Source: Eubacteriales bacterium
GTDB taxonomy: Bacteria > Bacillota > Clostridia > Oscillospirales > CAG-272
Assembly: GCA_045602325.1 (NCBI GenBank)
Contig: JAZSBH010000132.1
Location: 20,909 to 84,908 of the forward strand
Direction: 5' to 3'
DNA length: 64,000 bases
Shown: one piece after another, positions 28,003 to 43,177 of the stretch
Layout of the letters: every line of letters begins with the position of its first letter
Numbering within the stretch: the stretch's first letter is position 1
Notes under the pieces: generated by a model
Databases searched by the model: none
What the model saw: only the letters and a program-made list of their open reading frames with translations
What the model was told of the DNA's origin: nothing
Translations under genes and position numbers: made by a program

Positions 28003-29007
28003 ATGGAAATAAACAAATACGATTTTTGTACAAGTATAAAGAATGATTATAAGCTGGAGATATCTGATATATCCTTGCTTGACAGTCATTTTGGCACAGA
28101 GATATATCTGATGATTGCCAACAATCAAAAATATATAGTAAAAAAACTCCCGCTTTGTTTTGAGAATGTCAACAATGAGGGCGTTGTTAGCGATTATCTT
28201 GCAAGTCACGGGATTAAGGTCGCGCGACTTCTGCAGAATAATACCGGACATTATGTTTTGAAAACATCCGAATACCAACTTACGGTTCAAGAGTATATTG
28301 AAGGGGAAATACTTCAAGTGAATCGTGCTCCAAAATGGCTTATGGGTCGTTTGGCAGAGTATCTTGGGAGAGCAACCTTGGTGCTAAAAGATTTTGAACA
28401 GTTGCCCTTGCGATTTGGAAAAGAGTTTTTTTCGCCGGGTCATGCGATTGCGAAGAAAGAACAATACGTAACGGAGCTGGCAAGAACAAAGGATCGGGGT
28501 GATTCAACCACGATTCCCATATGGGAAGAGCAAATACGGCACCTTGAAAAGATTTCAACATTTCACATTGATACCGATAAGCTCACATATACCAATTCAC
28601 ACGGGGATTATCATATTGGTCAGGTGATTGTACAAGATAAGGATATTACGGTCATTGATTGGACATCGGCTTGCCAACTGCCGATATGCTTCGAGATCAT
28701 TACTTCATATGTATTTACCGCTCCGTCCTGTTCGGAAGGTGTTATTGATGCAGAAGGATTAAAAAGATATATTCAGACTTTTACGAAATATTTTCCGCTT
28801 ACGGAGTATGATATAAAAGCGATGCCATATGTCCTGTATTTTTGGCATTGTATGTGCAATTATCGCCCTGATGAAATTGCATGTATTGCTCCCAAATATC
28901 AGCCGATCGCAAATCTGCTAACAAATATGTTAAATTGGCTATATGAGCATGTAGATGAGTTGTCAGATCGGCTTACCTTATCATCCCCGAAAGGAGCCCG
29001 CCCATGA
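28003..29007 (+). CDS. APH/choline-kinase-family phosphotransferase
   Basis: Kinase-fold motifs HGDYHIGQVIV (catalytic loop) and ITVIDWTSA (D-x-x metal-binding). ATG 28003 after GAGGAGAG. The longer ORF-track start overlaps the GNAT gene. Confidence 0.7.
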   Translation: MEINKYDFCTSIKNDYKLEISDISLLDSHFGTEIYLMIANNQKYIVKKLPLCFENVNNEGVVSDYLASHGIKVARLLQNNTGHYVLKTSEYQLTVQEYIEGEILQVNRAPKWLMGRLAEYLGRATLVLKDFEQLPLRFGKEFFSPGHAIAKKEQYVTELARTKDRGDSTTIPIWEEQIRHLEKISTFHIDTDKLTYTNSHGDYHIGQVIVQDKDITVIDWTSACQLPICFEIITSYVFTAPSCSEGVIDAEGLKRYIQTFTKYFPLTEYDIKAMPYVLYFWHCMCNYRPDEIACIAPKYQPIANLLTNMLNWLYEHVDELSDRLTLSSPKGARP

Positions 29008-29126
29008 TCCTTACCCAACCGGAAGAAAAATGCGCCGATTTTATCCGTGCCGAGGACAAGAAATTTTTTGTCGCCGTTACGCAAGCGCTGAATGAACTGG
29101 GCTACCAGAATGGTTTTATGAATTGA
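29004..29126 (+). pseudogene. truncated duplicate of the 5' end of 24598-25110
   Basis: MILTQPEEKCADFIRAEDKKFFVAVTQALNELGY then a premature stop. Near-identical DNA over ~100 nt to 24598-24699. Confidence 0.65.
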
Positions 29127-29144
29127 AAGGAGATTAACAATTTT

Positions 29145-29642
29145 ATGATGAAATCAGAATCTTTTATCTATCACAACACCGGGAAAATGCGCTTCATCGG
29201 TATTGACGCATGGCGAACAGGAGATGATTGGGGCGGCCTTTGGGAGCGTTCTTCGGACTTCCTGCCGCGTCTGGAAGCTTTGAAAGCCGAGTATGCTACA
29301 GAGATTCCTGAAGCCGCGTCCCTTATCCACTCCGGTGGCAAGGAGGTAGGTGTGGAAGAACATTTCCTGGCAGGATATTTCTTCAAAGAAGGCACGCCTG
29401 TACCCGAAGGCTTTGATTATTATGATATTGAAACAGAGCGTGTTGGTTATGCCATCTATGTCAGCGATAACATTGGCGAGGACATGGAGAGTGCATATGC
29501 TCAGACAAGAGATAGAATTTTGGGAGACGGTTATCTGGTTCCGTATCCCCAGGGATATTGGCACGCTGAGATCTATACCAACGGTCGCCCCCATGATGGT
29601 GAGTACCGCTTTGGATATATGTTCCCCATGATTGATAAATGA
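29145..29642 (+). CDS. GyrI-like / integron-cassette Cass2-like ligand-binding protein (copy 4)
   Basis: MRFIGIDAW...WGGLWERS...HFLAGYFFKEGTPVPEGFDYYDIE...YWHAEIY pattern typical of this fold. Confidence 0.6.
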   Translation: MMKSESFIYHNTGKMRFIGIDAWRTGDDWGGLWERSSDFLPRLEALKAEYATEIPEAASLIHSGGKEVGVEEHFLAGYFFKEGTPVPEGFDYYDIETERVGYAIYVSDNIGEDMESAYAQTRDRILGDGYLVPYPQGYWHAEIYTNGRPHDGEYRFGYMFPMIDK

Positions 29643-29727
29643 TTGAATAATTATGTCTGTGGTACATAGTACTTACTGCCGAAATTTCGGAGCTGTTCTA
29701 TCTCGGAAACGCTGAAAGGAAAACTAA

Positions 29728-30849
29728 ATGAGTAACACACTGGAAACTAAAACCCTCGATCAGCTGCACGACGCATTGGTCTCCTACAACAGCTATATGT
29801 GCGAAATCCCGGAAACCTTCCCGATACTGTCGGAATATCTCCATGGTCTGTCGGAATCCGAGTTCTGCAGGGCATTCGCAAAGCTTGAAAAGAGCATTAT
29901 TGACCTCTATACATATCTCACCGACTATCCGGAATCTATCGGTCTGACTGTGAGGGACAAAAAGACCGGGGAGTGGAAAATCCAATCCTCCCAGCACATC
30001 AGTTGTGTAAAGAAACTACTGTATGTTCTCGGCAGACATGGTACAATCAATGGGGATTGCCTCCATATCTCCATGAATGACCTGATGAACGCGTACATGA
30101 CCTATTACCCCAATTCCTCCGTGGAGCTGTCGGATACCGTGAAGGAATTTGAGAAGGAAAAGCAGGATAAATTTTTCACTTCCAAGCATATGCAAATGGT
30201 ATTCGATTGTTTGGCCAAGTTCGGTTTTACCTTTGACGGATTGGACGCATTGGAAACACAGGTCATAGAAGTACGTTACCCGGAAAATCCTGCGGTATTG
30301 ACGGTGCTCCATAGCTTTGCACAGGCGAAAATCTGCCGGATCAACTTTGGATTTGATTTCACCAAGTGCAATTACAGAGTGTTTGCCCATCCTACATATG
30401 GGAAACTGCCGCTTCAAGATCTGTACAGTTATCAACTGCTGTCTGAGAAGAACAAGGCCTTTCTCTTAAAGCTGAATGCGGAACTGGAAAAGATCGGCAC
30501 GACTTACGGTGAATGTGCAGGAGGATGGTACAATGGTACGCTCCCCTGCGATTACAACTACAAAAACAAACTCCGCCTCCTGCAGAACATGGAAAGCGGA
30601 TTGGTCCCTCATGTGGTACTACGATTCGGAAAAAAAGCCGAAAAAATGGCGGCATTGATTGAATCCCTCCCGGAGGAATACAAAGGGTTGGTACAGAAAT
30701 GCCGAGGCTGCAGAAAGGGTGAGTGCGACCACCGGATCCCTGTAGCGGCGGAGGGTAAAACGCAGATGATCTGTAATGTGGCTTGGTGGTACTTCCCGCC
30801 GGAAGAAAAAGCAATTCCGTATATTGTGGCGGCGTATCGGATTTCATAA
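29728..30849 (+). CDS. hypothetical protein, possibly a distant family-X relative (C-terminal C-RG-C-RKGE-C)
   Basis: 373-aa ORF with an AAGGAAAA RBS. Shares the central FGF(T/V) element and a terminal Cys cluster with family X, but similarity is weak. Confidence 0.45.
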   Translation: MSNTLETKTLDQLHDALVSYNSYMCEIPETFPILSEYLHGLSESEFCRAFAKLEKSIIDLYTYLTDYPESIGLTVRDKKTGEWKIQSSQHISCVKKLLYVLGRHGTINGDCLHISMNDLMNAYMTYYPNSSVELSDTVKEFEKEKQDKFFTSKHMQMVFDCLAKFGFTFDGLDALETQVIEVRYPENPAVLTVLHSFAQAKICRINFGFDFTKCNYRVFAHPTYGKLPLQDLYSYQLLSEKNKAFLLKLNAELEKIGTTYGECAGGWYNGTLPCDYNYKNKLRLLQNMESGLVPHVVLRFGKKAEKMAALIESLPEEYKGLVQKCRGCRKGECDHRIPVAAEGKTQMICNVAWWYFPPEEKAIPYIVAAYRIS

Positions 30850-31027
30850 CCCCCGCTTTTTGCCTTCCGTCTGGTCCAGTGTAGCATAGCTCTCGCAGCT
30901 GTCAACGTGACCGAAAAATGAAATACAACCGAGAAAGTCAAGAAGCAATACTTGGCTTTTTCTTTATCCATAAGAAGAAAGTATCCGTTCCATCAAGTGA
31001 ATCCCGTGTACATACCTGCACTTGACA
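30850..31027 (+). repeat. junction repeat, copy A (full length)
   Basis: Aligns with 38959-39141 through core ggtc(c/t)agtgtagcatagctctcgcagctgtcaacgtg ... atccataag ... cgtgtac ... ttgaca. Starts at the base after a stop codon. Confidence 0.8.
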
Positions 31028-31050
31028 TTTTTTTCTTTTTTTGCTATAAT
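31022..31050 (+). promoter_or_regulatory. consensus sigma-A promoter of the glycyl-radical enzyme operon
   Basis: TTGACA - 17 nt (T-rich) - TATAAT exactly. The -35 box is the last element of repeat A. Confidence 0.75.
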
Positions 31051-31105
31051 TACCCTCAACCCATGAACAAATCACAAATATGGTTAAAGCCACGGAGGAC
31101 AACGT

Positions 31106-32008
31106 ATGACAGGTACTATTTTCAATATCCAGCGCTTTTCCCTGTTTGACGGTCCCGGGGTGCGGACTGTTGTCTTTCTCAAAGGATGCCCGCTGCGGTG
31201 CAGGTGGTGCCACAACCCGGAGGGGCTTTCTTCCGCGCGGCAGATCATGTATAATCCCGAGCGCTGCATAGGCTGCGGTGCTTGCATAGAAGCTTGCGAT
31301 TTTGATTGCCACGCCATCAAGGACGGCATTCACACTTACGACCGTCACCACTGCATCTCCTGCGGTAGGTGCGCCGAGGTCTGCTACAGCCGAGCGCTGA
31401 CCACCGTGGGGCAGGTCGTGACCGTAGACGAGATCATGGAAACAGTTTTGAAGGACAAAGCCGTTTATCTTGAAAGCGGCGGAGGGCTGACCCTTTCAGG
31501 AGGAGAGCCGCTTTTGCAAGGTGAATTTGCCATAGCGCTGCTGAAATCCGCAAAATCTCATGGGCTGCACACCTGCGTGGAGACCTCGGGCTTTGGTAAA
31601 ACCGAGATCCTTGCAGACATGGCCCAATATGTCGATCTGTTTTTATTCGACTATAAAATAACCGGCGATGATGCGCACCGCGAGCTTTGCGGTGTGCCGC
31701 AGACCCCCATCCTGGATCATTTGACCCTTTTGGACACGCTTGGGGCTAAGGTCATTTTGCGCTGTCCTCTTCTCCCCTTTAACCGCAACGACAATCATGC
31801 CGAAGGGATCGCGAGAACCGTTCTGTCCCATCCTTCTGTCACTGAAGTGCAGATCATGCCCTATCACCGTCTCGGTATTGCCAAGTCGGAGCAGCTTGGT
31901 ATGATCCCGGAATACGAAGGGGAGGTAGAGGATCGCGCCCTCGCAGAAGCATTCGTCCGCGATGTGCAAAAAAAATGCGGAGGACGGGTTAAAGTTTCGA
32001 TAGGATAA
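31106..32008 (+). CDS. glycyl-radical enzyme activating protein (radical SAM)
   Basis: C-PLR-C-RW-C radical SAM motif near the N-terminus, plus two ferredoxin-like motifs C-IG-C-GA-C-IEA-C and C-IS-C-GR-C-AEV-C, as in PFL2/glycerol-dehydratase-type activases. Confidence 0.9.
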   Translation: MTGTIFNIQRFSLFDGPGVRTVVFLKGCPLRCRWCHNPEGLSSARQIMYNPERCIGCGACIEACDFDCHAIKDGIHTYDRHHCISCGRCAEVCYSRALTTVGQVVTVDEIMETVLKDKAVYLESGGGLTLSGGEPLLQGEFAIALLKSAKSHGLHTCVETSGFGKTEILADMAQYVDLFLFDYKITGDDAHRELCGVPQTPILDHLTLLDTLGAKVILRCPLLPFNRNDNHAEGIARTVLSHPSVTEVQIMPYHRLGIAKSEQLGMIPEYEGEVEDRALAEAFVRDVQKKCGGRVKVSIG

Positions 32009-32030
32009 TTTACCACACCAAGGAGCCATC

Positions 32031-34337
32031 ATGTATAACACGAAAGAAAAACTCATTTTCACTGACCGCATGGAAGCGGTTAAAGCTGACATCCACCCCC
32101 GTCTGCGGCTGCGCAACGCCCGCGAGGACACCTTTATAGAGCCCATTCCCCGCGACGGACGCGATCCCTTTGCCGACGTGTTTGAGGAAATGCCGGATGC
32201 GCCTTATGTTATCACGCTCGCGCACGCCATCGTCCGCTCCTGGCTGACCCTTCCCTGTGTCATTTATCCCCACGAAGCGGTGGTGGGCATTACAAGACCC
32301 ATCTATCCCGCTATGGAGCATTTCAGCTGGGGCGTCCGTTTTTTGGATCACCCCTTGCATGACAGCAGTTATCCCGAGACCGAGCGCGCCCGTATTGATG
32401 CACTTTATGACCGCATGACGCCTCTGGACTACCGCCACATCCATAAAGCCGGTCACACCATGCTCACCGAAGAAATCTACAATGCGCTTGGCAGGGAAGG
32501 AATGTTCAATGCGGGTGGCTATCAGGGTCATACCATCCCCAACTACACAACGCTGCTTACAAACGGCCTGGACGGCATGCTTGCAATTATCGACAAGTAT
32601 GCTGCCATCAACAGCCGTGATGAGGAAACGGTGGATTTCTACGAGGCAAATCGCATTTTGGTGCGCGGCATGATCGCCCATATGGAGCAGTATGCACAGC
32701 ACGCGGCGCGCCTTGCTGAAAATGAAACCGATCCTGAGCAAAAGCGTTATTACAAAGACATTGCAGCAAACTGCGCGCACGTAGCGCACAAGCCCCCCGT
32801 CACACTGTATCAGGCCGTGCAGCTGACCTGGCTTTTGTCCTTGTGGGATTGGGTGGATTGCCTTGGCCGCGTGGATCAGTTCCTTTACCCCTTCTACGAA
32901 TACTCCCGTGAGCACGGTGACGTGATCTCCCCCGAGGAGTCCATCACCTCTCTGATGTTCAAAATCTGGGAGTGCGGTGCGCACAATACCACGATTGGAG
33001 GCTGTCATCCCGAGGACGGAAGTGACGCCACTAATGATCTTTCCTATCTGTTTTTGCAGATACTGCGCAACATTCACGATACGCATCCCCGCATGGTGGT
33101 GCGAGTTGGCGAGCAGACTCCCGCCGATCTGCTCCTTCTGGCATCTACTCTGTGGGCTGAAGGAATGTGCGATCCTACCGTGGTCAGCGACGAGACGGTG
33201 ATCCCCGGTCTCCTCAAGTTGGGCGTGACCTTGGAGGATGCACGCAATTACGCTACTCTTGGCTGCCAGGAGATCGAGGTGCCCGGCAAGAGCAACACGG
33301 GCTGCGAGGATGGCTCGATGAACCTTGCCAAGATCTTTGAGATCGCCATGAGGGGAGGAAAGGCGACGCATGATCGCACCACGCAGCTGGGGCCTGTTAC
33401 CAAACCCTTTGCCGAATGCGAGACCTTTGACGAGCTGTTTGACGGCTTTGTGACCCAGATGAAATTCTTCACCGAGGTACATTGTTATCTCTGCCGTGTG
33501 GGGCAAGAGATCCGCGCCGCCAACCACGCAAAGCTGCTCAAGGGTATCTTTACCGACGGTTGCCTGGAGCGCGGCATTCCTCATGACGCAGGTGGACCTA
33601 TCTACGGCTACGGTGTCATTGAGACCGCGGGACTTGCCGCTACCGCCGATGCGTTGACCGCGATCAAAAAGCTGATATATGAGGAAAAACGCATGACCAA
33701 GGAAACCCTCCTGGCGGCTTTGGATGCCAACTTCGAGGGCTACGAGCGAGAGCGTCAGATGCTTCTCAACGCCGCTCCCAAGTTCGGCAACGACGACCCC
33801 GAGGCTGACGAAATGGCAGTTCGCGTGCTGACGCTTTACTGGGATGAGATCGCCAAGTACCAATCGGGGCGTGGCGGGGTCTACACAGGAGCTTGCTCGC
33901 TGTTGACAGCGGGTATTGCGTACGGCAAGACGCTCGGTGCATTCCCTGACGGACGCTTTGCGGGAGAACCGCTTGGCAACTCCATGGGGCCCCGTCCGGG
34001 AGCGGATAAGAGCGGACTGACCGCCATGCTCAATTCGGTCACAAAGCTCCCCATGGAAAAGGGTGTGGGCGGTACGACCCTGAACGTCATCCTGACCACA
34101 CGCATGCTATCCACTCCCGCTCTTCGCACAAGTGTATCGACGACAATCAAAACGTTCCTGACTCACGGTGGCTGCATGGCGCAGATCACCACTGCCAACA
34201 AGGACGATCTTCTGGACGCCAAGTGCCATCCCGATCGCCACGGAGATCTCACCGTCCGTGTGGGCGGCTACAGCATTCAGTTCGTGCAGCTCGACAGCGA
34301 GACCCAGGATGAAATCATCAGTCGATATTGTTCATAA
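32031..34337 (+). CDS. glycyl radical enzyme, PFL2 / dehydratase-lyase branch, substrate unknown
   Basis: 768 aa with the C-terminal glycyl radical motif TVRVGGYSIQF and a Cys loop LGCQEIEV (Cys-x-Glu). AGGAG RBS. Confidence 0.85.
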   Translation: MYNTKEKLIFTDRMEAVKADIHPRLRLRNAREDTFIEPIPRDGRDPFADVFEEMPDAPYVITLAHAIVRSWLTLPCVIYPHEAVVGITRPIYPAMEHFSWGVRFLDHPLHDSSYPETERARIDALYDRMTPLDYRHIHKAGHTMLTEEIYNALGREGMFNAGGYQGHTIPNYTTLLTNGLDGMLAIIDKYAAINSRDEETVDFYEANRILVRGMIAHMEQYAQHAARLAENETDPEQKRYYKDIAANCAHVAHKPPVTLYQAVQLTWLLSLWDWVDCLGRVDQFLYPFYEYSREHGDVISPEESITSLMFKIWECGAHNTTIGGCHPEDGSDATNDLSYLFLQILRNIHDTHPRMVVRVGEQTPADLLLLASTLWAEGMCDPTVVSDETVIPGLLKLGVTLEDARNYATLGCQEIEVPGKSNTGCEDGSMNLAKIFEIAMRGGKATHDRTTQLGPVTKPFAECETFDELFDGFVTQMKFFTEVHCYLCRVGQEIRAANHAKLLKGIFTDGCLERGIPHDAGGPIYGYGVIETAGLAATADALTAIKKLIYEEKRMTKETLLAALDANFEGYERERQMLLNAAPKFGNDDPEADEMAVRVLTLYWDEIAKYQSGRGGVYTGACSLLTAGIAYGKTLGAFPDGRFAGEPLGNSMGPRPGADKSGLTAMLNSVTKLPMEKGVGGTTLNVILTTRMLSTPALRTSVSTTIKTFLTHGGCMAQITTANKDDLLDAKCHPDRHGDLTVRVGGYSIQFVQLDSETQDEIISRYCS

Positions 34338-34364
34338 CGTCAACTATTCTGATGAAAAATGTTC

Positions 34365-34412
34365 CCGATTTTTCACCTTTCGTCCGTGTCCAGTGTAGCA
34401 TAGCTCTCGCAA
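34365..34412 (+). repeat. junction repeat, copy B (5' part only)
   Basis: cccgatttttcacctttcgtccgtgtccagtgtagcatagctctcgca matches the first ~50 nt of copies A and C, then diverges. Confidence 0.8.
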
Positions 34413-34529
34413 AAGTATATTGATTCGAAAGAATGGATACCAAAGATACGAGTGGTCAATCTCAGATTTGGAAATATTAAAAATATAATTCTTTTACTCA
34501 GGACTTGAAATAGGCTTCTGGGAGAGTGT

Positions 34530-34600
34530 TTCAACCGCCATTAGAAATTTTCTCTCCAAACAAGTTATTGCTTTTCTATTCGTTTATGCTATAATATAAT
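34530..34600 (+). promoter_or_regulatory. promoter/operator repeat, copy 1 (upstream of XRE-TPR regulator)
   Basis: ttcaacc..ttagaaa..tctctccaaacaagttattg.ttttct.ttcgtt ending in an extended -10 (tgcTATAAT). Near-identical copy at 35609-35677. Confidence 0.65.
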
Positions 34601-34640
34601 CAGGACAAGCGCTGATCCTAAAACAATACGGAGGAAAGCA

Positions 34641-35456
34641 ATGATTAAGATTGGAGAAAAGATAAAGTTTTTAAGAAAGCAGAAAAATATATCCCAAGAA
34701 GTACTTGCCAACTATCTTGGTGTATCATTTCAAGCCGTTTCAAAGTGGGAGAACGGCAGTACAATGCCGGATGTTACCCTAATTCCTGCTATCGCATCAT
34801 TTTTCGGCGTTACTACCGATGAGATTTTTGATTTCAATCTGATGGAAATGGAAAAACAGGTGGATGCAATCTGTGATGAAGCATTAGAATACCGCCTAAG
34901 TGATTCAGAAAGAGCTGAGCGTATCCTGCGTGAAGGATTACGAAAATTCCCTGGGAACGACACAATACTGAATAACTTGCTTTACACATTAGATATGCAT
35001 ATGAGAGCAGACGAGGTTATAACTCTCTGTAAATCTCTCATAGAGGCAACGAAGGACGATTCGATTAAATACGATGTTTGCCGGATTCTTGCAACGTGCT
35101 ACAAGGAAAACGGAGAACGTGAACTGGTTAAATCAACCTTGGAAATGATTCCGGAGTTTTATTTCTCAAAGCTGGGGCTTGCGGCATCGCTATTGGATGG
35201 CGAGGACAGCTATGAAGCTGCGCAGAAACAGAAGAATATTTCTGCGGAAGACTTAATCGATATGCTGATGATTACAGGCAAACGCTTGCAGGAAATAGGA
35301 GAAAACGATAAAGCCATTTCCCAATTCAGAATAGCGCAAAAGGTCATGGATGCTTTTGCCGAGGATTTTCTGGAAACCAAGTGGTTCGAGGCAACGGTCT
35401 ATGAGTACACAAGCGCGCAACGGAAGGAAATCGAACAACTCATTAATGAAGCATAA
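34641..35456 (+). CDS. XRE-family HTH regulator with C-terminal TPR-like helical domain (RNPP-like architecture)
   Basis: ISQEVLANYLGVSFQAVSKWENGSTMPDVTLIPAIASFF is an XRE HTH. It is followed by ~200 aa of helical-repeat sequence. Confidence 0.75.
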   Translation: MIKIGEKIKFLRKQKNISQEVLANYLGVSFQAVSKWENGSTMPDVTLIPAIASFFGVTTDEIFDFNLMEMEKQVDAICDEALEYRLSDSERAERILREGLRKFPGNDTILNNLLYTLDMHMRADEVITLCKSLIEATKDDSIKYDVCRILATCYKENGERELVKSTLEMIPEFYFSKLGLAASLLDGEDSYEAAQKQKNISAEDLIDMLMITGKRLQEIGENDKAISQFRIAQKVMDAFAEDFLETKWFEATVYEYTSAQRKEIEQLINEA

Positions 35457-35491
35457 CCTTCGCCTCAAGCGGCTGATACTAAATACGGACA

Positions 35492-35521
35492 AAGGGTTCA
35501 GGATGAAAGTTCTGAACCCTT
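35492..35521 (+). terminator. hairpin terminator after the regulator gene
   Basis: Perfect 10-bp stem aagggttcag / ctgaaccctt, but the T-run is short. Confidence 0.5.
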
Positions 35522-35608
35522 TGCCGTGTTTATAGGTGGAATGTAAGATGTAAGTAGAAATTATACAATCACGATTTTCGGTTATGATATATATAGTCAT
35601 ACCCGATA

Positions 35609-35677
35609 TTCAACCTGCGTTAGAAAAAATCTCTCCAAACAAGTTATTGTTTTCTCTTCGTTGCTGTGGTATCATAG
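35609..35677 (+). promoter_or_regulatory. promoter/operator repeat, copy 2 (upstream of ABC exporter genes)
   Basis: Same ~70-nt block as 34530-34600, ending in an extended -10 (tggTATCAT). Confidence 0.65.
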
Positions 35678-35749
35678 TGCTGGTGAAAGTTGATACGGTC
35701 ATAGGGCTCTTTCACTCGTCTACGCCGGTATAGGAGGAAAATATAAGAA

Positions 35750-37342
35750 ATGAAACTAAAAGATCTCACACGTTTTATAAGAAATAAGTTTCGATTTTAT
35801 ATCTTTTTTACGTGTATGAAAGAGTTGATACGCACCTTTATTAGCATTTTTATCCCCATTTTGTTATCAAAAATTATATTGAAAGCTACAGCGGGAAATG
35901 TGAATGAGGTGTTGTTTTTTGCTATCATCATTCTTTCGATCAAACTTGTAGAATTGATTATTTTCTGCATAACTGATATTCAGCTTCAAAAAAACTTATC
36001 AAAAAACAAACATGTCTGCAAATTGGAGTTTTATAAGTTCTTCTTCGACAGACCCCTACATGAGTTGTTTTCCCTTAAAGTTGGAGACACGAAAGAAAAA
36101 CTAAACGACGATTTTGAGACTATAACGAAAAAATATACCTCAACCTACCCCAAAACCATCACATCCCTGTTGTCCGCCATTGCATATTTTCTATATTTGG
36201 TTTCCTTGAGTCCATGGATCGCGCTTATTTTCTTTGCGATCTCGCTGCTGCAAGTGATCCCTCCTATATTGATTCGAAAGTATCTTCAGGTAAATTATGA
36301 TGACTGCCGAGATATAGAGGCAGAATTAACAGACTTCGTTATTGGAGGATATCGGGCATTTTTGCTGATTAAGCTATATAAGCTGGACAACTGGTGGAAG
36401 AAAAAGCTCGCCGGACTTCACAAGAAGTATTCGAAAATCGGAAGAAAAAGCATCTACACGGGAACCGCAGAAAGTGTACTTAATGATATTATCAACAGTA
36501 TTCTTACATATGTTACATACGGTATTATCGGTTTGCTTGTTTTGAACGGTGTTGTCACACTTGAAGTTGGTATTCAGGCAATCGCCGTATCCGGAAGTGT
36601 TTTCGGATTGGTCAAGACCATATTTGAGGTGATTCGTGATGTTGCCGTGAGCAGAGCAGCCGAAATTCGACTTTCCGATTCGTCCATGTCAACTGAATCA
36701 ACCGAAGCCCATATACGCACAGGCAATATCAACGTTTCGGATTTAACTTTTTCGTATGATGAAAATGTGCTGATTTCAAACCTGAGCCTTTCCATGGATC
36801 ATCCCAAAATATCTGTCATGAAAGGAGCCAACGGAAGCGGTAAAACGACCTTGCTTCATTTGATTGCCGGTGTTTTGAAAAGCAACACGGGAGAAGTATC
36901 CATAGATGGCATTTCTTCGTCTGCTCTTTCTTCCTTCAACTATCCAAGGAATTTGTTCTTCCTTCCGCAAGAAGATGCCGTATTCAATTTCACGGCAATA
37001 GAGTTGTTTTCCATGATGCTTCCTGACCGTAAGGACAAGGTTTTGGAGCAAGCAAAAAGATTTGGCTTGAATGAAAACTTATTGCATGGCGCCCAAATAA
37101 GTGAGCTGTCCGGCGGAGAGCGAAAAAAGGTCTTTCTTTCAATTGCGTTTGTGATAAATCCCATATTGATGATATTAGATGAACCAACAAATTCGTTGGA
37201 TATGGAGGGAAAAGCTCAGCTCAAAGAATTATTGCGTCAGAGAGAAGGACATACGCTGCTTGTGACACATGACGGATTTATGGATGATATGGCAGGGTAC
37301 ACATACGAGATCAATAAAGGAGCCAATGATGAACACATATAA
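35750..37342 (+). CDS. ABC exporter, fused permease-ATPase subunit 1
   Basis: N-terminal ~300 aa with six hydrophobic helices. Walker A GANGSGKTT, signature LSGGERKK, Walker B LMILDEPT. Confidence 0.85.
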   Translation: MKLKDLTRFIRNKFRFYIFFTCMKELIRTFISIFIPILLSKIILKATAGNVNEVLFFAIIILSIKLVELIIFCITDIQLQKNLSKNKHVCKLEFYKFFFDRPLHELFSLKVGDTKEKLNDDFETITKKYTSTYPKTITSLLSAIAYFLYLVSLSPWIALIFFAISLLQVIPPILIRKYLQVNYDDCRDIEAELTDFVIGGYRAFLLIKLYKLDNWWKKKLAGLHKKYSKIGRKSIYTGTAESVLNDIINSILTYVTYGIIGLLVLNGVVTLEVGIQAIAVSGSVFGLVKTIFEVIRDVAVSRAAEIRLSDSSMSTESTEAHIRTGNINVSDLTFSYDENVLISNLSLSMDHPKISVMKGANGSGKTTLLHLIAGVLKSNTGEVSIDGISSSALSSFNYPRNLFFLPQEDAVFNFTAIELFSMMLPDRKDKVLEQAKRFGLNENLLHGAQISELSGGERKKVFLSIAFVINPILMILDEPTNSLDMEGKAQLKELLRQREGHTLLVTHDGFMDDMAGYTYEINKGANDEHI

Positions 37343-38918
37343 AAAACGAGTTGTCCGGGATTGCGCAAGGACAGTTTTTCCTTCTGCTGTATTTAACGTA
37401 TTGGATGCGGTCATTGGAGCATTGCTGACCGTGTATATTTCAAGCATTCTGGCCAAGTTTGCCGATGCCATATTTGCAATGGATATAACTTACGGCATGG
37501 AGAATTTCGGGATACTGATCATATGCGTTCTTATCTCGCTGTTTGTTATGCCCTTGTTTGGTACCGTAAAGGAAATTCTTCTCTTTGACAATTCTTTAAA
37601 GCATGACCGCATGATCTACGGAAGATATCTGAATAAAAGATTCAAAGAGGCTCGGCAATTTTCTGAAGGAGAAGTTCAATATCGGCTTGAACAGGATGCT
37701 ATAGACGTGCGTTGTATGTGGCTCGATTTGGTTACGAAAAGCATAGCCACGCCGATCATGCTCGGATATTTGCTCTATCATTCTATACGGATCAGTCTGC
37801 TGTATACGGTCATAATTTTTCTCGTTTCAGCGCTGAAATTGGTTATACCGGTCGTAACAAAAAAGCTGAACACTAAATACGATAAAGAAGTCCGAGAGTA
37901 TCAGACGCAAGTGCGATCCTACGAATTTGAAGTGCTGGATCAACCACATAAAGTAAAAATGTACGGGCTGACATCACCGCTACTGCAAAGATTCGACCAA
38001 ATTTATTTGCGCTTTTTCCGTGATACATTGAGAAAAAGCATTCGACTGTCCTCCATAACATCAAATCTATCCGGCACGCTTGATACATTTTGCACGATCA
38101 TCATTCTATTGTCCGGAGCCATCCTGGTTGCCAAAGGCGAAATGACAGCGGGAGGTATCGCAGCCGCGTTCGGATTCCTTTCGATTTTCAATACGTTGTT
38201 TGAAAATATTTCTTCCTTTATTCGTGATTATCCCGTTTTCGGAACGCTGGTTGACCGATTGACCATCTTTTATACTCACGAAGAAAAATCTTCCGGCGCA
38301 CAAGTGTCTTCCCTAAATGAAATATCTGTCAGCGACCTTTCTTTTTCCTATGATGAAAAATCTGTATTTCAAAATGTGAATTTTACGATACACCAAGGAG
38401 ATAAGGTTGCGATATGTGGCCAAAACGGAAGCGGCAAATCGACTTTGATCAAGCTGCTATGCGGAGTTTTAAAAGATTATTCCGGGCAAATTAAGATTGA
38501 CGGGCAAGAATTGTCGGAATTATCTGCTCTTAACTGGTACGATTGCATTGCCTATACCGAACAGGATCCATACCTGTTCCCGATGAGTATAAAAGAGAAC
38601 ATTCGCATTGGAAATCTTAACGCATCTGATGAGGAGCTTGATGAAGCCATTCGAAAACTTGAACTAGAATATCTCATCGACCGCGATATTCATTCGGAAA
38701 AACAGCAGTTGTCAGGAGGAGAAAAACAGAAGATTTCCATAGCGCGAGCATTGCTGAAAAATACGCCCATCATCATAATGGATGAGCCAAGCAACAATTT
38801 AGATACGGGGGCTTTGGCGTGGCTTGGTGATTTTATCCGCCATTCGTCTAAGACGATTGTTTTCGTGTCCCACGATTCGGATCTGATATCTTGTGCTGAT
38901 TATACGGTTTGTTTGTAA
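37326..38918 (+). CDS. ABC exporter, fused permease-ATPase subunit 2
   Basis: Walker A GQNGSGKST, signature LSGGEKQK, Walker B IIIMDEPS. ATG 37326 follows AAGGAG and overlaps subunit 1 by 17 nt. Confidence 0.85.
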   Translation: MMNTYKKRVVRDCARTVFPSAVFNVLDAVIGALLTVYISSILAKFADAIFAMDITYGMENFGILIICVLISLFVMPLFGTVKEILLFDNSLKHDRMIYGRYLNKRFKEARQFSEGEVQYRLEQDAIDVRCMWLDLVTKSIATPIMLGYLLYHSIRISLLYTVIIFLVSALKLVIPVVTKKLNTKYDKEVREYQTQVRSYEFEVLDQPHKVKMYGLTSPLLQRFDQIYLRFFRDTLRKSIRLSSITSNLSGTLDTFCTIIILLSGAILVAKGEMTAGGIAAAFGFLSIFNTLFENISSFIRDYPVFGTLVDRLTIFYTHEEKSSGAQVSSLNEISVSDLSFSYDEKSVFQNVNFTIHQGDKVAICGQNGSGKSTLIKLLCGVLKDYSGQIKIDGQELSELSALNWYDCIAYTEQDPYLFPMSIKENIRIGNLNASDEELDEAIRKLELEYLIDRDIHSEKQQLSGGEKQKISIARALLKNTPIIIMDEPSNNLDTGALAWLGDFIRHSSKTIVFVSHDSDLISCADYTVCL

Positions 38919-38958
38919 CTCATTATGATTAGGCATATGTGTATGAGTTGCAACGAAT

Positions 38959-39141
38959 CCCCCGATTTTTCACCTTTCGTCCTGGTCTAGTGTAGCATAG
39001 CTCTCGCAGCTGTCAACGTGAAAAATTATCGCTGAAAAATGAAATAAGATACAGAATAGCCAGGTAGCAATACCTGGTTTTTCTATATCCATAAGCAATA
39101 TTTTTTCGTGTACTGGCAAGGGACTATACCTCTCGTTGACA
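38959..39141 (+). repeat. junction repeat, copy C (full length, with intact hairpin)
   Basis: Aligns with copy A over ~180 nt. Contains a perfect hairpin ccaggta-gcaa-tacctgg followed by TTTTT, probably the terminator of the ABC operon, and ends at a TTGACA. Confidence 0.8.
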
Positions 39142-39236
39142 TCTGCACACTTCACTCGCAAGGATCTCGATTTCCTCCCGACCTATGCTCCCCCGACCCT
39201 GCCGAAAGGCGAAATAAAAATCGGGAGGTATAGAAA

Positions 39237-39875
39237 ATGAAAACCCAAACCAAAGAAAGAATCACCAACGAAAACGTAAGGATCACCGAGAACAATGTCC
39301 AGCATATCGGTGAGTGCATCGCGCTATCTGCCATCAAGAAAATGATGCGTTTCGCACACCATCCACGTTCTCTTGACAAGCTGTATGCCGGATTGGTCGA
39401 GGATATCTACCACAGCAAAGGCTACAACACGACCTTCTCGGATGGCTATGATCTCGCATCCGAAGTGATATGCTTCCTCTGTCATTACATTGGTCATAAC
39501 TTGGATGATTTGGCTTGTCAAAATCGTAAAGGTGAGCTACTTACTGTCCGCTTTGCCTGCTACCGTTACGCCCTGCGGTACATCGAGAAGGAATATCTGT
39601 CCGCGTTCAAGACCATCAGTATCGAAGAATGCTCGCAGGCCGATGCTTCCATTGACTTCGAGACCCAGTATGAGATTGAGGACTATACCAAGGTCGATAC
39701 GATCATCCATCAAATGCGGTTGACCATTGCAGAAAAAGAGACTTTGAACTACTACATGGCGGGACTCGGATTCGTGGCGATCGCGCAGATGCAGAATGTC
39801 AATAACACGACTGTCTGGCGCAGAAGAAAGAGCATTCAGAAGAAGTATCTGCGATATGTGGTCATGCAAGGCTGA
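39237..39875 (+). CDS. sigma-70 region-4-like HTH protein of mobile elements
   Basis: The C-terminal LTIAEKETLNYYMAGLGFVAIAQMQNVNNTTVWRRRKSIQKKY resembles a sigma region 4 / LuxR-like HTH. GGGAGG RBS. Confidence 0.5.
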   Translation: MKTQTKERITNENVRITENNVQHIGECIALSAIKKMMRFAHHPRSLDKLYAGLVEDIYHSKGYNTTFSDGYDLASEVICFLCHYIGHNLDDLACQNRKGELLTVRFACYRYALRYIEKEYLSAFKTISIEECSQADASIDFETQYEIEDYTKVDTIIHQMRLTIAEKETLNYYMAGLGFVAIAQMQNVNNTTVWRRRKSIQKKYLRYVVMQG

Positions 39876-39896
39876 CTACTCTTACCATAATAATAA

Positions 39897-39930
39897 CGCC
39901 GAGAGTAACCGTAATTGGTCGTTCCCGGCG
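39897..39930 (+). repeat. conserved-loop hairpin H1
   Basis: Stem cgccgaga / tcccggcg around an exact 17-nt core, gtaaccgtaattggtcg, repeated in H2. No T-run follows. Confidence 0.7.
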
Positions 39931-39937
39931 ACAACTG

Positions 39938-39962
39938 ATAGTTGACAATATTTATCAACTAT
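39938..39962. promoter_or_regulatory. palindromic operator candidate
   Basis: ATAGTTGA-N9-TCAACTAT (10 of 12 arm positions pair), immediately upstream of the promoter at 39966. Confidence 0.5.
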
Positions 39963-39965
39963 CTC

Positions 39966-39994
39966 TTTACATTTGGGCTGTTCTGTGATATAAT
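39966..39994 (+). promoter_or_regulatory. promoter of XRE gene 40038
   Basis: TTTACA - 17 nt - TATAAT with TG extended -10. Confidence 0.6.
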
Positions 39995-40037
39995 AAAAAC
40001 AGTTCCGGAGCAATTTACCTTTTGGAGGGAAATTTAC

Positions 40038-40649
40038 ATGGCAAATCTAAAGATAGGTGAAAAAATCAAAGTAAAAAGGCGCGAGCGTGAACTAACACAA
40101 GAGGAGCTTGCCAGTATGCTCGGTGTAAGCAAAGCAGCAGTCAGCAAGTGGGAAAATGAAGAAAGCTACCCCGATATAACCATGCTTCCACAAATAGCGA
40201 AACTATTCCATATAACGATGGATGAACTTTTCGACTATACTTTGGAGTACAAACCGTTAGTTATCGTGAATGAATATCATTTTGGGCTGTCTCTTGACAC
40301 TGTCGATAAGCGTGTTTTGGATCACGGAACCGTGAAATCTTGCGGTGTATATAAAACCGAACGTCTGGTTGGTGAGAATATCGAATCCACATGGGAAACG
40401 CGGGTTGAATTTATCTCCACGGAAGAGAATTTTCCGTATATACTTCAGCAATATATAAAACCCGGTCATCTGACAGATGGATACAGTATGAGACTCGCGG
40501 ACGGCAAGATAATCGACGATGACAAACCAAACAAGCATTTTGTTTGTAAGGAGAAAGTGTGGGAGTACAGAACAACCGATCGCAAATATTTGCGTCAAAT
40601 GCTGAAAGAACTGCGCGAAATGGGATTTTCGGATGAAGATGATGTGTAA
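40038..40649 (+). CDS. XRE-family HTH protein with unknown C-terminal domain
   Basis: LTQEELASMLGVSKAAVSKWENEESYPDITMLPQIAKLF. ATG 40038 follows GGAGGGA. The ORF-track start 39942 would lie upstream of the promoter. Confidence 0.75.
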   Translation: MANLKIGEKIKVKRRERELTQEELASMLGVSKAAVSKWENEESYPDITMLPQIAKLFHITMDELFDYTLEYKPLVIVNEYHFGLSLDTVDKRVLDHGTVKSCGVYKTERLVGENIESTWETRVEFISTEENFPYILQQYIKPGHLTDGYSMRLADGKIIDDDKPNKHFVCKEKVWEYRTTDRKYLRQMLKELREMGFSDEDDV

Positions 40650-40715
40650 ATCAACTTCATAATTAGCCGCTGTCGGCTTTCTAGAAAAATACTTCATACC
40701 ATATCAAAAAGAATG

Positions 40716-40751
40716 CCGCCGAAGGTAACCGTAATTGGTCGCCCTCGGCGG
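40716..40751 (+). repeat. conserved-loop hairpin H2
   Basis: Stem ccgccgaagg / ccctcggcgg around the same 17-nt core gtaaccgtaattggtcg (40725-40741). Confidence 0.7.
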
Positions 40752-40786: not shown

Positions 40787-41314
40787 TTATGCAATTGAAT
40801 ACTTCTTGGCATATTCAAGAACAACGTTTCGAAAATGTTCATGCTTAAAGTTATGCCTGATATCCGTAATGTCTACATACATCCCCTGCATTAAACTCTG
40901 AATAATTGTTTCTGCCAAAAAAGCCTCAAAAACATAGTCATCCGTAAACGCTTGCTCAATATCAGTATTCATTCCGTTGTTAATACCTTCAATAGCATAA
41001 CGATAGATTAAACTCTCCCGTCCCAATTTCTGCTCCATAATCTTCAAACAATTAAGGCCGTCAATAAGATCGGATATCTTGACTTTCCCCTTAAAAGATA
41101 GGGTGGACTCCCCACAGCGCAAAATATAATCAATAGTTGTTTCAAAAACATCGGCAAGTGTCGGTAAAATTGATATATCAGGCAAAGTTTCGCCCCGTTC
41201 CCATTTACTAACTGCTTGGAAAGTAACGCCGAGCCGATCACCTAGATCGGCTTGCGTCATGTTTTTACTGGTACGTAGCATGGCAATAGTAGCCCCGATT
41301 TTCTTACTGTCCAT
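40787..41314 (-). CDS. XRE-family HTH protein with helical C-terminal domain
   Basis: MTQADLGDRLGVTFQAVSKWERGETLPDISILPTLADVF. The only minus-strand gene in the island. Confidence 0.75.
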   Translation of the reverse strand: MDSKKIGATIAMLRTSKNMTQADLGDRLGVTFQAVSKWERGETLPDISILPTLADVFETTIDYILRCGESTLSFKGKVKISDLIDGLNCLKIMEQKLGRESLIYRYAIEGINNGMNTDIEQAFTDDYVFEAFLAETIIQSLMQGMYVDITDIRHNFKHEHFRNVVLEYAKKYSIA

Positions 41315-41488
41315 AGTTCATCTGCTCCTTTATAGAATATGTAAAGCCGGCTTCCAAAGATATTATAGCAGAATACCACGGATAAATCAATAACCCGTAA
41401 AGTTAGTTTTCAACACTCAAACTCAACGTGATAGGTTTTTGTAAATTGTCCACGAAAAAGCTCTTTTTTCCCCCTTTGGCACCCTAAC

Positions 41489-41639: not shown

Positions 41640-41820
41640 GGCTTATTGGATAGATTTCGTTTTTGGACGTTTGTTGGAGCATCGCTTGGTCAGATCGTCA
41701 GCCTTCGCATCAGCTCTGTCAGTCTCCGAGTGAGATTTGTCCAGTAGATTATCAAAATCCGCCAGTTCCGTAAGTTGACATTAAGATTTCGGTGTGCTAT
41801 CCTGTTTATGCACCATGGAT

Positions 41821-41864: not shown

Positions 41865-41899
41865 TACTAAAAGATGTGGAAAAATATAGGTTTAGTTGC

Positions 41900-43169: not shown

Positions 43170-43177
43170 CAAATTAG

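Follow-up and report, generated by a model that had tools for sequence, protein, structure and literature searches.

A repeated left end of a tRNA-side serine-recombinase element family delimits cargo modules in a Eubacteriales genomic island

SCC and SCCmec elements, which carry CcrAB or CcrC, use one chromosomal site and stack there in tandem, and the pseudo-SCC and ACME units among them lie between repeated attachment sequences without a recombinase of their own; their recombinases fall into divergent allotypes with a common site specificity. ACME has been described in tandem with SCCmec (PMC5964201). In Dehalococcoides, several ssrA islands with the serine integrase DsiB lie in tandem downstream of ssrA; some of these stacked islands lack an integration module and are read as cis-mobilizable units acquired through accretion, and the phylogeny of the cargo disagrees with that of the integration module (McMurdie et al. 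2011, PMC3146451). Further, the small integrative elements known as IMEs and CIMEs in Firmicutes bring along a recombinase and a rolling-circle-type Rep or relaxase; they often lie in tandem with relatives or remnants and often at tRNA 3′ ends, and they carry adaptive cargo (Guedon et al. 2017, PMC5704250; Faecalibacterium mobilome, PMC12084326). Accretion of stacked elements is a known mode of genomic island growth. A literature search found no description of the element family reported here, of the module formed by its left end (LE) and first gene (ORF212), or of its position next to a terminator.

The window, which is the whole 64-kb stretch of DNA analysed, contains three direct copies (A, B and C) of a repeat, all on the plus strand and in the same direction, with cargo genes between them.

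30850-31027, plus strand: LE copy A, an older, diverged left-end copy whose LE-homologous head spans 30850-30971
31022-31050, plus strand: sigma-70 consensus promoter TTGACA-17-TATAAT with TG, scoring 12/12, 5′ of the activase gene and the GRE operon
31106-34337, plus strand: cargo module 1, with activase (31106-32008) and glycyl radical enzyme, GRE (32031-34337), by Pfam/NCBIfam
34364-34411, plus strand: LE copy B, a 48-nt head only
34412-38958, plus strand: cargo module 2, with XRE-type HTH regulator (34641-35456) and ABC exporters (35750-37342 and 37269-38918)
38959-39236, plus strand: LE copy C, an intact left end

The 20-mer AGTGTAGCATAGCTCTCGCA is found exactly at 30878, 34392 and 38989, with matches in 0 of 100 shuffles, and the repeat search places the common head at 30850-30897 (A), 34364-34411 (B) and 38961-39008 (C). 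Copies A and C are 87.6% identical, ungapped, over about 122 nt (A1-122 and C1-134), and A has a 10-nt deletion relative to C that removes 'aaaattatcg'. Their last ~55 nt, up to TTGACA, are only 66% identical yet score above 500 of 500 shuffles, so that the ~180-nt homology holds with a weak tail. Copy B equals C at 45 of 48 positions and diverges abruptly past ...CTCGCA. The distance from the preceding stop codon is 0 nt for A (stop at 30847-30849), 26-27 nt for B (GRE stop at 34335-34337) and 40 nt for C (ABC exporter stop at 38916-38918). Divergence is greatest in the tRNA-distal copy A, which has lost the 15-nt motif described below, retains a weakened hairpin and is fused through its tail to the GRE promoter; copy B has lost the −35 of an outward promoter, and the tRNA-proximal copy C is intact. 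The TTGACA of A and that of C both lie in the poorly conserved tail, and only that of A is followed by a good −10. The first-pass annotation had claimed three direct copies, an A/C alignment of ~180 nt, a copy B of only ~50 nt, starts 0-40 nt past stop codons (here 0, 26 and 40 nt), a hairpin plus T-run in copy C and a role for the TTGACA of copy A as the −35 box of the GRE promoter; these claims are all borne out by the measurements given here, and Pfam/NCBIfam searches confirm the gene identities (GRE activase, GRE, HTH, two ABC exporters and large serine recombinase).

An exact scan with the 20-mer retrieved 45 contigs from Clostridia/Eubacteriales metagenome-assembled genomes (MAGs) of ruminant and human gut, with up to 8 contigs and at least eight sites in one MAG; because the loci (L numbers below) were collected by exact match, the sample is biased towards intact heads, and MAG contigs may be mis-assembled. 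In most copies, the repeat continues, conserved, into the gene found at 39237-39875 of the window (ORF212), which makes copy C the LE of an element some 5.9 kb long. Conservation of LE sets in at a single nucleotide, (Y)C|CCGATTTTT, and the 35 left flanks beyond it are distinct and unrelated; these flanks are A/T-rich and show no common motif or target tetranucleotide. The genes neighbouring LE belong to more than 30 unrelated families and lie on both strands. The repeat is the left terminus conserved in a family of small mobile elements that occur in many copies per genome. Truncated copies are in the minority, and solo LE copies are truncations at varied points (about 48, 60, 70, 85, 105, 115, 160 and 230 nt of the ~280-nt LE). 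Moreover, L012 and L035 have internal deletions joining LE to the ORF212 terminator, L011 is an apparent miniature derivative consisting of LE(1-112) and a right end, and L023 carries two inverted LE copies. Behind several LE-ORF212 copies lie unrelated genes, and no large serine recombinase (LSR) occurs within 4-7 kb. The copy A variant recurs with the same flank in L013 and with a different flank in L017.

The element headed by copy C, its working left end, is intact and runs from 38959 to about 44885, inserted beside tRNA-Glu(CTC). Its features are as follows.

38959-39236, plus strand: copy C, which includes the LE terminus (Y)C|CCGATTTTT, the boundary against the 35 flanks
39016 to 38989, minus strand: outward promoter-like site within the conserved core
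39024-39038, plus strand: 15-nt motif
39058-39079, plus strand: terminator hairpin and T-run
39136-39141, plus strand: TTGACA
39237-39875, plus strand: ORF212, the first gene after LE in most copies, about 90% conserved in amino acids
39876-41469, no strand assigned: variable region, with HTH regulators at 39942-40649 (plus) and 40787-41314 (minus)
39889-39930, in the variable region: ORF212 terminator hairpin motif
41470-42293, plus strand: conserved stretch without a long plus-strand ORF, 84-91% identical in nucleotides elsewhere, at least over 41470-41810
42294-43169, plus strand: rolling-circle Rep, PF23343, ORF2/G2P family (E = 5e-10)
43170-43345, plus strand: long imperfect inverted repeat (single-stranded DNA fold −36 kcal/mol, z −5.6)
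43370-44872, plus strand: LSR with Pfam Resolvase, Recombinase and Zn_ribbon_recom domains (PHROG integrase, 1e-107)
44873-44885, plus strand: inferred right end, between the LSR stop codon and the tRNA terminator
44886-45007, minus strand: tRNA-Glu(CTC) at 44933-45007 with its own hairpin and T-run terminator at 44886-44932

The gene order is thus LE, the sigma-like ORF212, XRE HTH regulators, the rolling-circle Rep, the conserved hairpin and the LSR. The ORF212 C-terminus weakly resembles a sigma-70 region 4 or LuxR-type HTH, a 5′ leader in copy C is predicted to sequester a ribosome-binding site, and the conserved stretch at 41470-42293 is possibly an oriT or origin. The order LE-ORF212-Rep-LSR recurs in L046, L040, L007, L025, L032 and L034, and also in the metagenome relatives L077, L110 and L119, whose LSRs are only 46-58% identical. 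Rep is ~93% conserved in amino acids among element copies, the LE head is nearly constant where LSRs are only 45-62% identical, and the inverted repeat is 90-95% conserved in nucleotides even beside divergent recombinases; LE travels with the ORF212/Rep module and not with the LSR. Overall, the LSR domains lie at one end of an element that has discrete ends and varied flanks on both sides, as in serine-recombinase integrative elements.

On the right, the element is flanked by the chromosomal tRNA-Glu(CTC) gene and its terminator, the candidate target region. Each right end within range borders a convergent gene for tRNA or tmRNA on that gene's 3′ side, namely tRNA-Glu (window, L001 and L046), tRNA-Glu-TTC (L012), tRNA-Ser (L040), tRNA-Leu (L029) and tmRNA (L036 and L041). 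In about 30 of 80 LSR relatives, a minus-strand tRNA lies no more than ~560 nt from the end of the LSR match, and LSRs at 58-59% identity consistently have a tRNA-Ser ~310 nt downstream. In relatives, tRNA-Glu, a 7xx-aa gene and infC remain syntenic. L127/L128 have the same terminator hairpin by tRNA-Glu but no LSR beside it, and the right end is accordingly located no more than ~15 nt from the LSR stop codon. Among the matches listed, there was no excised circle joining the right end to LE, no empty target site and no crossover point, and no copy of the tRNA 3′ end was found flanking the LE copies.

Neither the GRE unit nor the ABC unit contains a recombinase, and both turn up in different combinations in other genomes. 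A full LE follows the GRE gene (97-99% identical in amino acids) in L006 and L023. In particular, contig JAGARU010000138 (L013 and L006) is collinear with window positions 18020-34411 at 94-99.7% identity and runs from GRE plus 27 nt straight into a full LE; it therefore lacks exactly LE(1-48) and 34412-38958. The GRE flank is ~95% identical in nucleotides between the window and L006/L023, against only ~87% for the LE-ORF212 behind it, and by these alignments the GRE-to-LE boundary is a site of turnover behind a fixed junction. MAG JAZSFA (L017 and L023) has the order LE_A-GRE-GRE-LE (GRE 98.8% in amino acids); its left flank differs from that of the window, with the divergence falling exactly at the LE_A terminus. 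The tRNA-Ser element L040 has the 3′ end of the ABC module with an identical junction to LE, and L038 is a second array, with three direct LE copies (~60 nt, ~85 nt and full) and cargo genes between them. In L081 and L082, which are distant relatives, an LE homologue begins ~30 nt and ~7 nt past an LSR stop codon; these junctions are the one indirect hint of a circle with joined ends.

The reading best supported, with a probability of about 0.65, is that sibling mobile elements accreted side by side, copies A and B being truncated LE heads and C intact. Elements arriving side by side would have produced a tandem; A and B would be the heads left by siblings stacked on the tRNA-distal side, each now fronting cargo (the GRE operon behind A and the HTH plus ABC exporter operon behind B). 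Recombination at the LE terminus may then add or remove whole units, and an outermost LE head paired with the single right end at the recombinase would allow the whole stack to move as a composite. We infer the action of the LSR on the LE head, as well as the crossover position and the route by which the inner cores were lost. If this account is correct, the island in the window grew by stacking of sibling elements, as known islands have. Comparison of the sequences documents that the repeat is an element end, as well as the multi-copy distribution, the tRNA-side anchoring, the reshuffling of modules between genomes and the tandem LSR-to-LE junctions in relatives; the repeated direct ends delimit units, some recombinase-free, and the units recur in other combinations. 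Suggestions in the first-pass annotation that the copies delimit modules, that they are mobile-element ends and that they are relics of related elements in tandem have all gained ground: modules recur in L006, L023, L040 and L017, with the ABC unit missing from JAGARU010000138; the LE boundary is sharp against 35 flanks and continuous into a recombinase-bearing element; and tandem relics are the preferred reading here.

Several observations count against accretion, among them the LE-ORF212 copies with no LSR nearby and the failure to find a circle, empty site or crossover among the matches listed. A right-end relic was not found at the right boundary of each unit: the short spacers that separate the cargo stop codons from LE_B (26-27 nt) and LE_C (40 nt) do not resemble 44873-44885, the element right end. 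Because the module right ends are unlike the element right end, simple tandem insertion followed by decay needs deletions that end exactly at the next LE. Further, the LE head stays nearly constant despite LSR divergence, and in L127/L128 and L004 an LE copy adjoins a tRNA terminator in the opposite orientation. Canonical large serine recombinases join attP to attB, and not attP to attL or attR.

Compared with the described systems, the arrangement of sibling elements proposed here resembles the Dehalococcoides islands in having a large serine recombinase at the island end beside a tmRNA- or tRNA-type gene. Those islands are bounded by direct repeats, 20 bp long, of the ssrA 3′ end and insert in the T-loop; in contrast, the element here ends outside the tRNA, past its terminator, with no flanking copy of the tRNA 3′ end, and its repeated boundary is 48-280 nt of its own left arm. 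The accessory genes also differ, with Rep and a sigma-like ORF here and DsiA, ParB and Mom homologues in Dehalococcoides. Like SCC composites, the array has stacked serine-recombinase elements and recombinase-free units set apart by repeats that bear attachment sequences; its probable target is a tRNA/tmRNA terminator rather than rlmH, and SCC boundaries are 15-18-bp repeats at both unit ends, whereas here the left arm alone is repeated. The LSR has weak similarity to CcrB/CcrA; it was rejected as a Ccr because its score is far below the family cut-off (125 vs 900 bits). IMEs and CIMEs share the small size, the combination of recombinase and Rep, the tRNA-side position and the tandems with relatives or remnants, although their described accretion involves mostly tyrosine integrases and identical att cores at each boundary.

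Homologous recombination by itself is unlikely to account for the array, while being the alternative that fares best. RecA-dependent exchange among the ~8 element copies per genome would shuffle the DNA upstream of LE plus ORF212, their longest conserved stretch, and the three copies would record past unequal crossovers rather than recombinase sites. LE-ORF212 is 85-93% identical among copies whose adjacent recombinases are 45-62% identical, which indicates an exchange of modules, the conserved hairpin being a second breakpoint; moreover, exchange between two direct 48-nt heads could yield the presence or absence of the ABC unit, and the inverted copies in L023 are a substrate for inversion. 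However, such exchange explains neither the stop of homology at one nucleotide against 35 flanks, nor the origin of a 48-nt head before unrelated cargo, nor LSR-to-LE junctions of only 7-30 nt.

A more ambitious proposal, which we consider distinctly doubtful, is that the first 48 nt or less of LE form a minimal reusable attachment site, and that the locus is a serine-recombinase cassette platform at tRNA/tmRNA terminators. Units composed of an LE head, its own terminator and promoter and one operon would be added or removed singly on the tRNA-distal side, making the platform a serine-recombinase counterpart of the integron with the whole stack mobile as a composite; Rep and the common 15-nt motif might supply single-stranded or multimeric substrates. 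As an explanation of the window, single insertion and excision of LE-headed units by the serine recombinase, in the manner of an integron, is less probable still. The exact one-unit polymorphism between collinear contigs fits it, as do the LE-headed cargo arrays in the window and L038, the GRE-to-LE junction in three genomes and the ABC-to-LE junction at both tRNA-Glu and tRNA-Ser elements, and the shortest heads kept (48-60 nt) are long enough for a serine-recombinase half-site. Against it, the varied LE truncation points and the internal deletions in L012 and L035 suggest decay more than a defined cassette boundary, free cassette circles were not seen, and the known arrays number two.

The array is similar to an integron in that direct repeats part single-operon modules upstream of a recombinase platform, with presence or absence of one unit; unlike an integron, it has no IntI, no attC-type folded site and no common Pc promoter, and its repeat lies 5′ of each module with its own terminator and promoter. 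An integron proper was rejected on the 5′ position of the repeat, a conserved core with no attC-like imperfect palindrome, and the finding of no tyrosine recombinase among the ORFs scanned (about 8200-48200). Two Cass2 Pfam matches, at 19778 and 21287, correspond to GyrI-like domain proteins.

The 12-mer TATCGCTGAAAA occurs at 39027-39038 in copy C and at 43234-43245 in the hairpin, where about 1.3 such matches common to a 180-nt segment and 64 kb are expected by chance. Its extended form, AAWTATCGCTGAAAA, is conserved throughout the element family at the two sites, which lie on the same strand, and the loop of the inverted repeat carries it as AAATATCGCTGAAAA (43231-43245). The first-pass annotation had linked the two sites through this 12-nt match, and the motif itself stands. 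Since the hairpin with the motif co-varies with the Rep module (90-95% in nucleotides) and not with the recombinase (45-62% in amino acids), the motif probably serves Rep or a regulator rather than the recombinase. Mobility driven by Rep, with the 15-nt motif as a rolling-circle nick site, LE as an origin or terminus of replication or transfer, and the sharp LE end and captured DNA resulting from one-ended events of the HUH type, as in IS91/ISCR, is very improbable. In its favour are an HUH-type Rep and a motif found twice on one strand, with one of the two in the loop of a stable hairpin of 165 nt; the motif is conserved at both sites, and LE and hairpin alike co-vary with Rep and not with the recombinase. 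The motif, however, lies ~65 nt inside LE and off the terminus, copies A and B lack it and are still module boundaries, the target tetranucleotide is absent at the flanks, and the tRNA-terminator anchoring tracks the recombinase clade.

A generic intergenic repeat or reused terminator-promoter block of the REP/MITE type, unlinked to the mobility of its neighbours, is scarcely credible and largely refuted: the many intergenic copies per genome, the terminator and promoter-like sites within them and the L011 miniature would fit, but most copies are continuous with ORF212 and the Rep-recombinase element, an Rfam search gave 0 matches, truncated copies are a minority, and in the arrays of the window and L038 the repeats lie in direct orientation, upstream of a full copy. 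Genome-wide occurrence, named by the first-pass annotation as the mark of a REP-like repeat, is formally observed (about 8 copies per MAG), and arises because the element itself is multi-copy, not because the repeat is REP-like.

The low-GC region beside tRNA-Glu, which begins where GC falls from about 18000 onward, is best read as a system of serine-recombinase integrative elements with accretion. Its architecture is explained by a glycyl radical enzyme (GRE) operon and an ABC exporter operon carried as cargo on stacked, related elements, whose left-end sequence (LE) is present in three direct copies.

Features of the array in the window
30850-31027, + strand: LE_A, heading the GRE module
32031-34337: GRE
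34364-34411, + strand: LE_B, heading the ABC module
34412-38958: ABC module (HTH regulator and two ABC exporters)
38959-39236, + strand: LE_C
39237-39875: ORF212, a sigma-like gene
42294-43169: Rep, a rolling-circle replication protein
43370-44872: LSR, a large serine recombinase
44886-44932: terminator of tRNA-Glu
44933-45007, minus strand: tRNA-Glu(CTC), adjoining the right end of the element

The three-copy repeat is a real and well-delimited feature. In particular, a scan of the window finds the 20-mer AGTGTAGCATAGCTCTCGCA exactly at 30878, 34392 and 38989, all on the + strand, with matches in 0/100 shuffles, and a repeat search places the shared head of the copies at 30850, 34364 and 38961. 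LE_A, the copy most distal from the tRNA, is the most diverged: it is 87.6% identical to LE_C across about 122/134 nt, carries a 10-nt deletion, and drops to 66% identity over the final ~55 nt, which yet scores above all 500 shuffles. LE_B is a 48-nt head that matches LE_C at 45/48 positions and ends abruptly after CTCGCA. The first-pass annotation had described the three direct copies, and its details are borne out; the distances from the preceding stop codon are 0, 26 and 40 nt (A, B and C), LE_C has a hairpin and T-run at 39058-39079, and TTGACA-17-TATAAT at 31022-31050 is a perfect promoter match. Pfam and NCBIfam identify the GRE activase, GRE, HTH, two ABC exporters, Rep and large serine recombinase. 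The tRNA is the sole match of an Rfam scan of the whole window at the gathering threshold, so the LE belongs to no known RNA family. The D2 repeat (24596/29002), considered as a further junction repeat, was ruled out because it proved to be the first part of a paralogous gene; in the block of tandem paralogues at 19778-29105, two genes are Cass2/GyrI-like and gene starts recur as repeats D2, D4, D6, D7 and D9.

The accompanying idea that the copies are element ends or tandem relics is essentially right, as the repeat has a sharp left boundary and a conserved continuation into the element. An exact scan of one genome per species finds the 20-mer in 45 contigs, with up to eight in one MAG (JAZSFA), all from Clostridia/Eubacteriales/Oscillospiraceae MAGs and mostly from ruminant gut; the 20-mer matches no viral contigs, and there is no sign of phage. 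Copies were aligned on the 20-mer, and the loci (L numbers, from other contigs or MAGs) were then compared by BLAST and tblastn. In most copies, homology extends rightwards for hundreds of bases into ORF212, and the recurrent order is an LE of ~280 nt, ORF212, ~2 kb of variable XRE-type regulators, a conserved stretch without a long + strand ORF, Rep (PF23343), a 165-nt inverted repeat and the LSR. Because this LE-ORF212-Rep-LSR order recurs in other copies, LE_C is an intact left end belonging to an intact ~5.9-kb element. The ORF-poor stretch, at 41470-41810 in the window, is 84-91% conserved in many element copies (L001, L029, L036, L039 and others).

When metagenomes were searched with the LSR, one close relative emerged (L046; 91% aa), which likewise adjoins tRNA-Glu(CTC). 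Further, three loci whose LSRs have 46-58% identity (L077, L110 and L119) keep the same gene order and a recognisable LE homologue. The LE varies in step with ORF212 and Rep (about 90-94% aa), not with the LSR, and its head is almost unchanged among elements whose LSRs share only 45-62% identity; LE, sigma-like gene, Rep and hairpin are a conserved module paired with divergent recombinases. A comparison by eye of LE positions 11-24 in ~11 copies revealed no correlation with recombinase type or tRNA. The system is not an integron, nor is the LE a REP-like repeat; the element family is apparently undescribed, yet abundant, with many copies per genome and a consistent anchorage at tRNA/tmRNA terminators.

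Several LE-ORF212 copies are relics with unrelated genes behind them, and solo LEs are truncated at variable points. Two loci, L012 and L035, are internal deletions in which the LE is fused to the ORF212 terminator motif, a hairpin CGCCGAGAGTAACC...GGTCGCYCTCGGCG predicted to be a terminator behind ORF212 (39889-39930); its fusion to a truncated LE indicates that ORF212 was deleted internally. The hairpin recurs in L001, L012, L035, L041 and L126, and the window has a related copy with 81% identity at 40709-40750, close to where both HTH genes end. At L011 (~7169-7400), LE(1-112) runs into the final codons of an L040-type recombinase gene, followed by that gene's downstream hairpin, 'ttacTGGC' and then non-tRNA sequence; this miniature represents either a deletion derivative of MITE type or a tRNA-Ser locus that has been rearranged. 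L075 (184-3779) contains two convergent recombinase genes ~450 nt apart with an LE homologue only ~200 nt upstream of the second, a possible minimal LE-recombinase element.

Both borders of the element are constrained by these comparisons. Across 35 non-redundant left flanks, the information content is about zero up to position -3 and then jumps at (Y)C followed directly by CCGATTTTT; position-frequency analysis of the 35 flanks found no conserved half-site. The left-neighbour genes belong to >30 unrelated families on both strands, including surface proteins, regulators, defence-like proteins and a tyrosine recombinase. On the other side, each right end inside the fetched DNA adjoins the 3′ side of a convergent tRNA or tmRNA gene. 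A minus-strand tRNA lies at most ~560 nt past the end of the LSR match in ~30/80 LSR relatives, and the LSR group with 58-59% identity consistently has tRNA-Ser ~310 nt downstream. The 80 loci (L046-L125) represent an LSR clade with 45-74% identity to the window LSR and a convergent tRNA typically within about 120-560 nt; these tRNAs are Ser, Glu, Gln, Lys, Met, Arg, Ile and Leu, and their identity tracks the recombinase subgroup. Such tRNA-adjacent targeting is commoner among tyrosine integrases.

Sequence comparison places the right end of the window element within ~15 nt between the LSR stop (44872) and an A-run. The order tRNA-Glu(CTC), 7xx-aa gene, infC, rpmI and rplT is conserved among homologues of the window's right-flank gene. 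The 'aacctaaa...tttaggtt' hairpin and T-run also stand behind tRNA-Glu with no LSR alongside in L127/L128, which makes the hairpin the terminator of tRNA-Glu itself and rules it out as part of the element's right end, although L011 is awkward for this rejection. An ssrA-GI-type boundary, with T-loop integration and direct repeats, is rejected because the window has no second copy of the tRNA-Glu 3′ end at ≤3 mismatches in 26. The A-run and T-run in the window suggest dyad symmetry of the right end with the LE head, but L040, L036 and L029 do not reproduce it. An A-run followed by ...CTAA(G/A)CC... is common to tRNA-side sequences at Glu, Ser, Leu and tmRNA sites; it would fit a family with shared site preferences, like Ccr allotypes, but is only suggestive. 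Two LE copies close to tRNA terminators, one in L127/L128 and one in L004, are inverted. Moreover, inserts of ~100-170 nt separate some tRNAs (Glu or Gln) from a displaced 20-27-nt copy of the tRNA 3′ end; the displaced copies have one extra T-loop base, each insert has its own terminator, and the inserts resemble att relics left by another element, one that targets the T-loop.

Inserts between a tRNA and a displaced copy of its 3′ end
L046, 11563-11735
L129, ~9590-9744
L004, ~4640-4800, minus strand

The cargo modules differ between genomes in whole units. For example, contig JAGARU010000138 (L013+L006) aligns collinearly with window 18020-34411, with identities of 94-99.7%, and there GRE plus 27 nt leads directly into a full LE and ORF212, so that one exact unit, LE(1-48) plus 34412-38958, is absent. 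Window 22823-28954 is also absent from collinear L013, a second indel between the two genomes, without a bounding LE. At the GRE-LE junction, the GRE flank is ~95% identical between genomes and the LE-ORF212 behind it only ~87%; the junction is occupied by different element copies. At a tRNA-Ser site with a 62% identical LSR (L040), the ABC 3′ end, with an identical 40-nt spacer and junction, again lies ahead of an LE. JAZSFA (L017+L023) contains an A-type LE, activase, GRE (98.8% aa) and then a full LE, and its left flank (L017) is unlike the window's, with divergence beginning exactly at the LE_A terminus. Further, L038 is an independent array of three direct LE copies (~60 nt, ~85 nt and full) with cargo genes between them, and LE homologues that lie ~30 nt (L081) and ~7 nt (L082) after an LSR stop codon show elements arranged head to tail.

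The GRE is mobile cargo that two other MAGs (L006 and L023) also carry, at 97-99% aa identity. It scores under all the NCBIfam equivalog cut-offs, those for hydroxyproline dehydratase, sulfopropanediol dehydratase and CutC among them. With the GRE and ABC operons as cargo, movement between ruminant and human gut Clostridia is likely. A 45-nt direct repeat with 84% identity lies upstream of the HTH gene (34530-34574) and of the first ABC exporter gene (35609-35653), and probably provides paired operator/promoter sites for the HTH regulator.

Accretion of sibling elements is the best-supported reading of the three-copy array. Sibling elements would arrive side by side at the tRNA-terminator site; their inner cores would be lost or replaced, while the LE heads stay ahead of cargo; and the outermost LE head could, together with the single recombinase-side end, mobilise the entire stack. 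The comparisons establish what the repeat is, how it is distributed and anchored, the unit polymorphism and the tandem junctions; we infer both the action of the LSR on the LE head and the position of the crossover. Several points sit uneasily with this reading. Canonical serine integrases are not known to recombine attP with attL or attR, the loci compared yielded no excised circle or empty site, and the right ends of the GRE and ABC modules have no right-end relic. The near-constant LE head beside divergent LSRs, the inverted LE copies near tRNA terminators, the LE-ORF212 relics and the variable truncation points of solo LEs are further difficulties. The alternative that the ABC module is a sibling's variable region is unsupported, since relatives of HTH271 occur there but on the opposite strand.

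Accretion itself has been described before, in SCC, ssrA islands and ICE/IME systems. The closest precedents include SCC composite islands, ICE/IME tandems and remnants in Firmicutes (PMC5704250 and PMC12084326) and the Dehalococcoides ssrA islands, for which PMC3146451 describes a serine integrase and tandem islands, some without an integration module, read as accretion. Unlike these, the present element ends past the tRNA terminator and not in the T-loop, is without short att direct repeats, and repeats its own left arm, complete with terminator and promoters, as the boundary. If the recombinases truly share one short element-side site yet choose different terminators, they would be useful for studies of serine-integrase specificity and as integration tools.

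The 12-nt link that the first-pass annotation drew between LE_C and the recombinase-side inverted repeat stands in part. The 12-mer by itself is at chance level (~1 occurrence expected), but a 15-nt motif, AAWTATCGCTGAAAA, defined post hoc, has only two window sites, both on the + strand, and is conserved family-wide in the LE and in the inverted-repeat loop. This long, imperfect inverted repeat (43170-43345, between Rep and LSR) folds as an ssDNA hairpin (z = -5.6) and retains 90-95% nt conservation even beside an LSR of 45% identity, exceeding the adjoining LSR gene; its conservation is independent of the LSR, and it therefore belongs to the Rep module. AAWTATCGCTGAAAA is more likely a Rep nick site, origin or regulator site than a recombinase site, and the inverted repeat is a candidate origin (sso/dso or oriT) that also appears to be a breakpoint for recombinase-module swaps.

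The most conserved part of the LE is an outward promoter-like site, TTGACA-16-TGcTACACT, on the minus strand at 38989-39016 (also 30878-30905), reading out of the left end. It is identical in 48 copies, with variants including TTGACT/TACCAT and TTTACT/CATACT; distant LE homologues keep the -35, TG and TAnnnT -10 with a varying spacer. In the RNA fold of the ORF212 leader (39150-39236; z -2.5), the ribosome-binding site UCGGGAGG is paired with a C-rich stretch, and the leader inserts take two alternative forms among copies, '...ggcgaaataaaaa...' or '...tggctcgcgaacagcgaagctgttcagaaaa...'.
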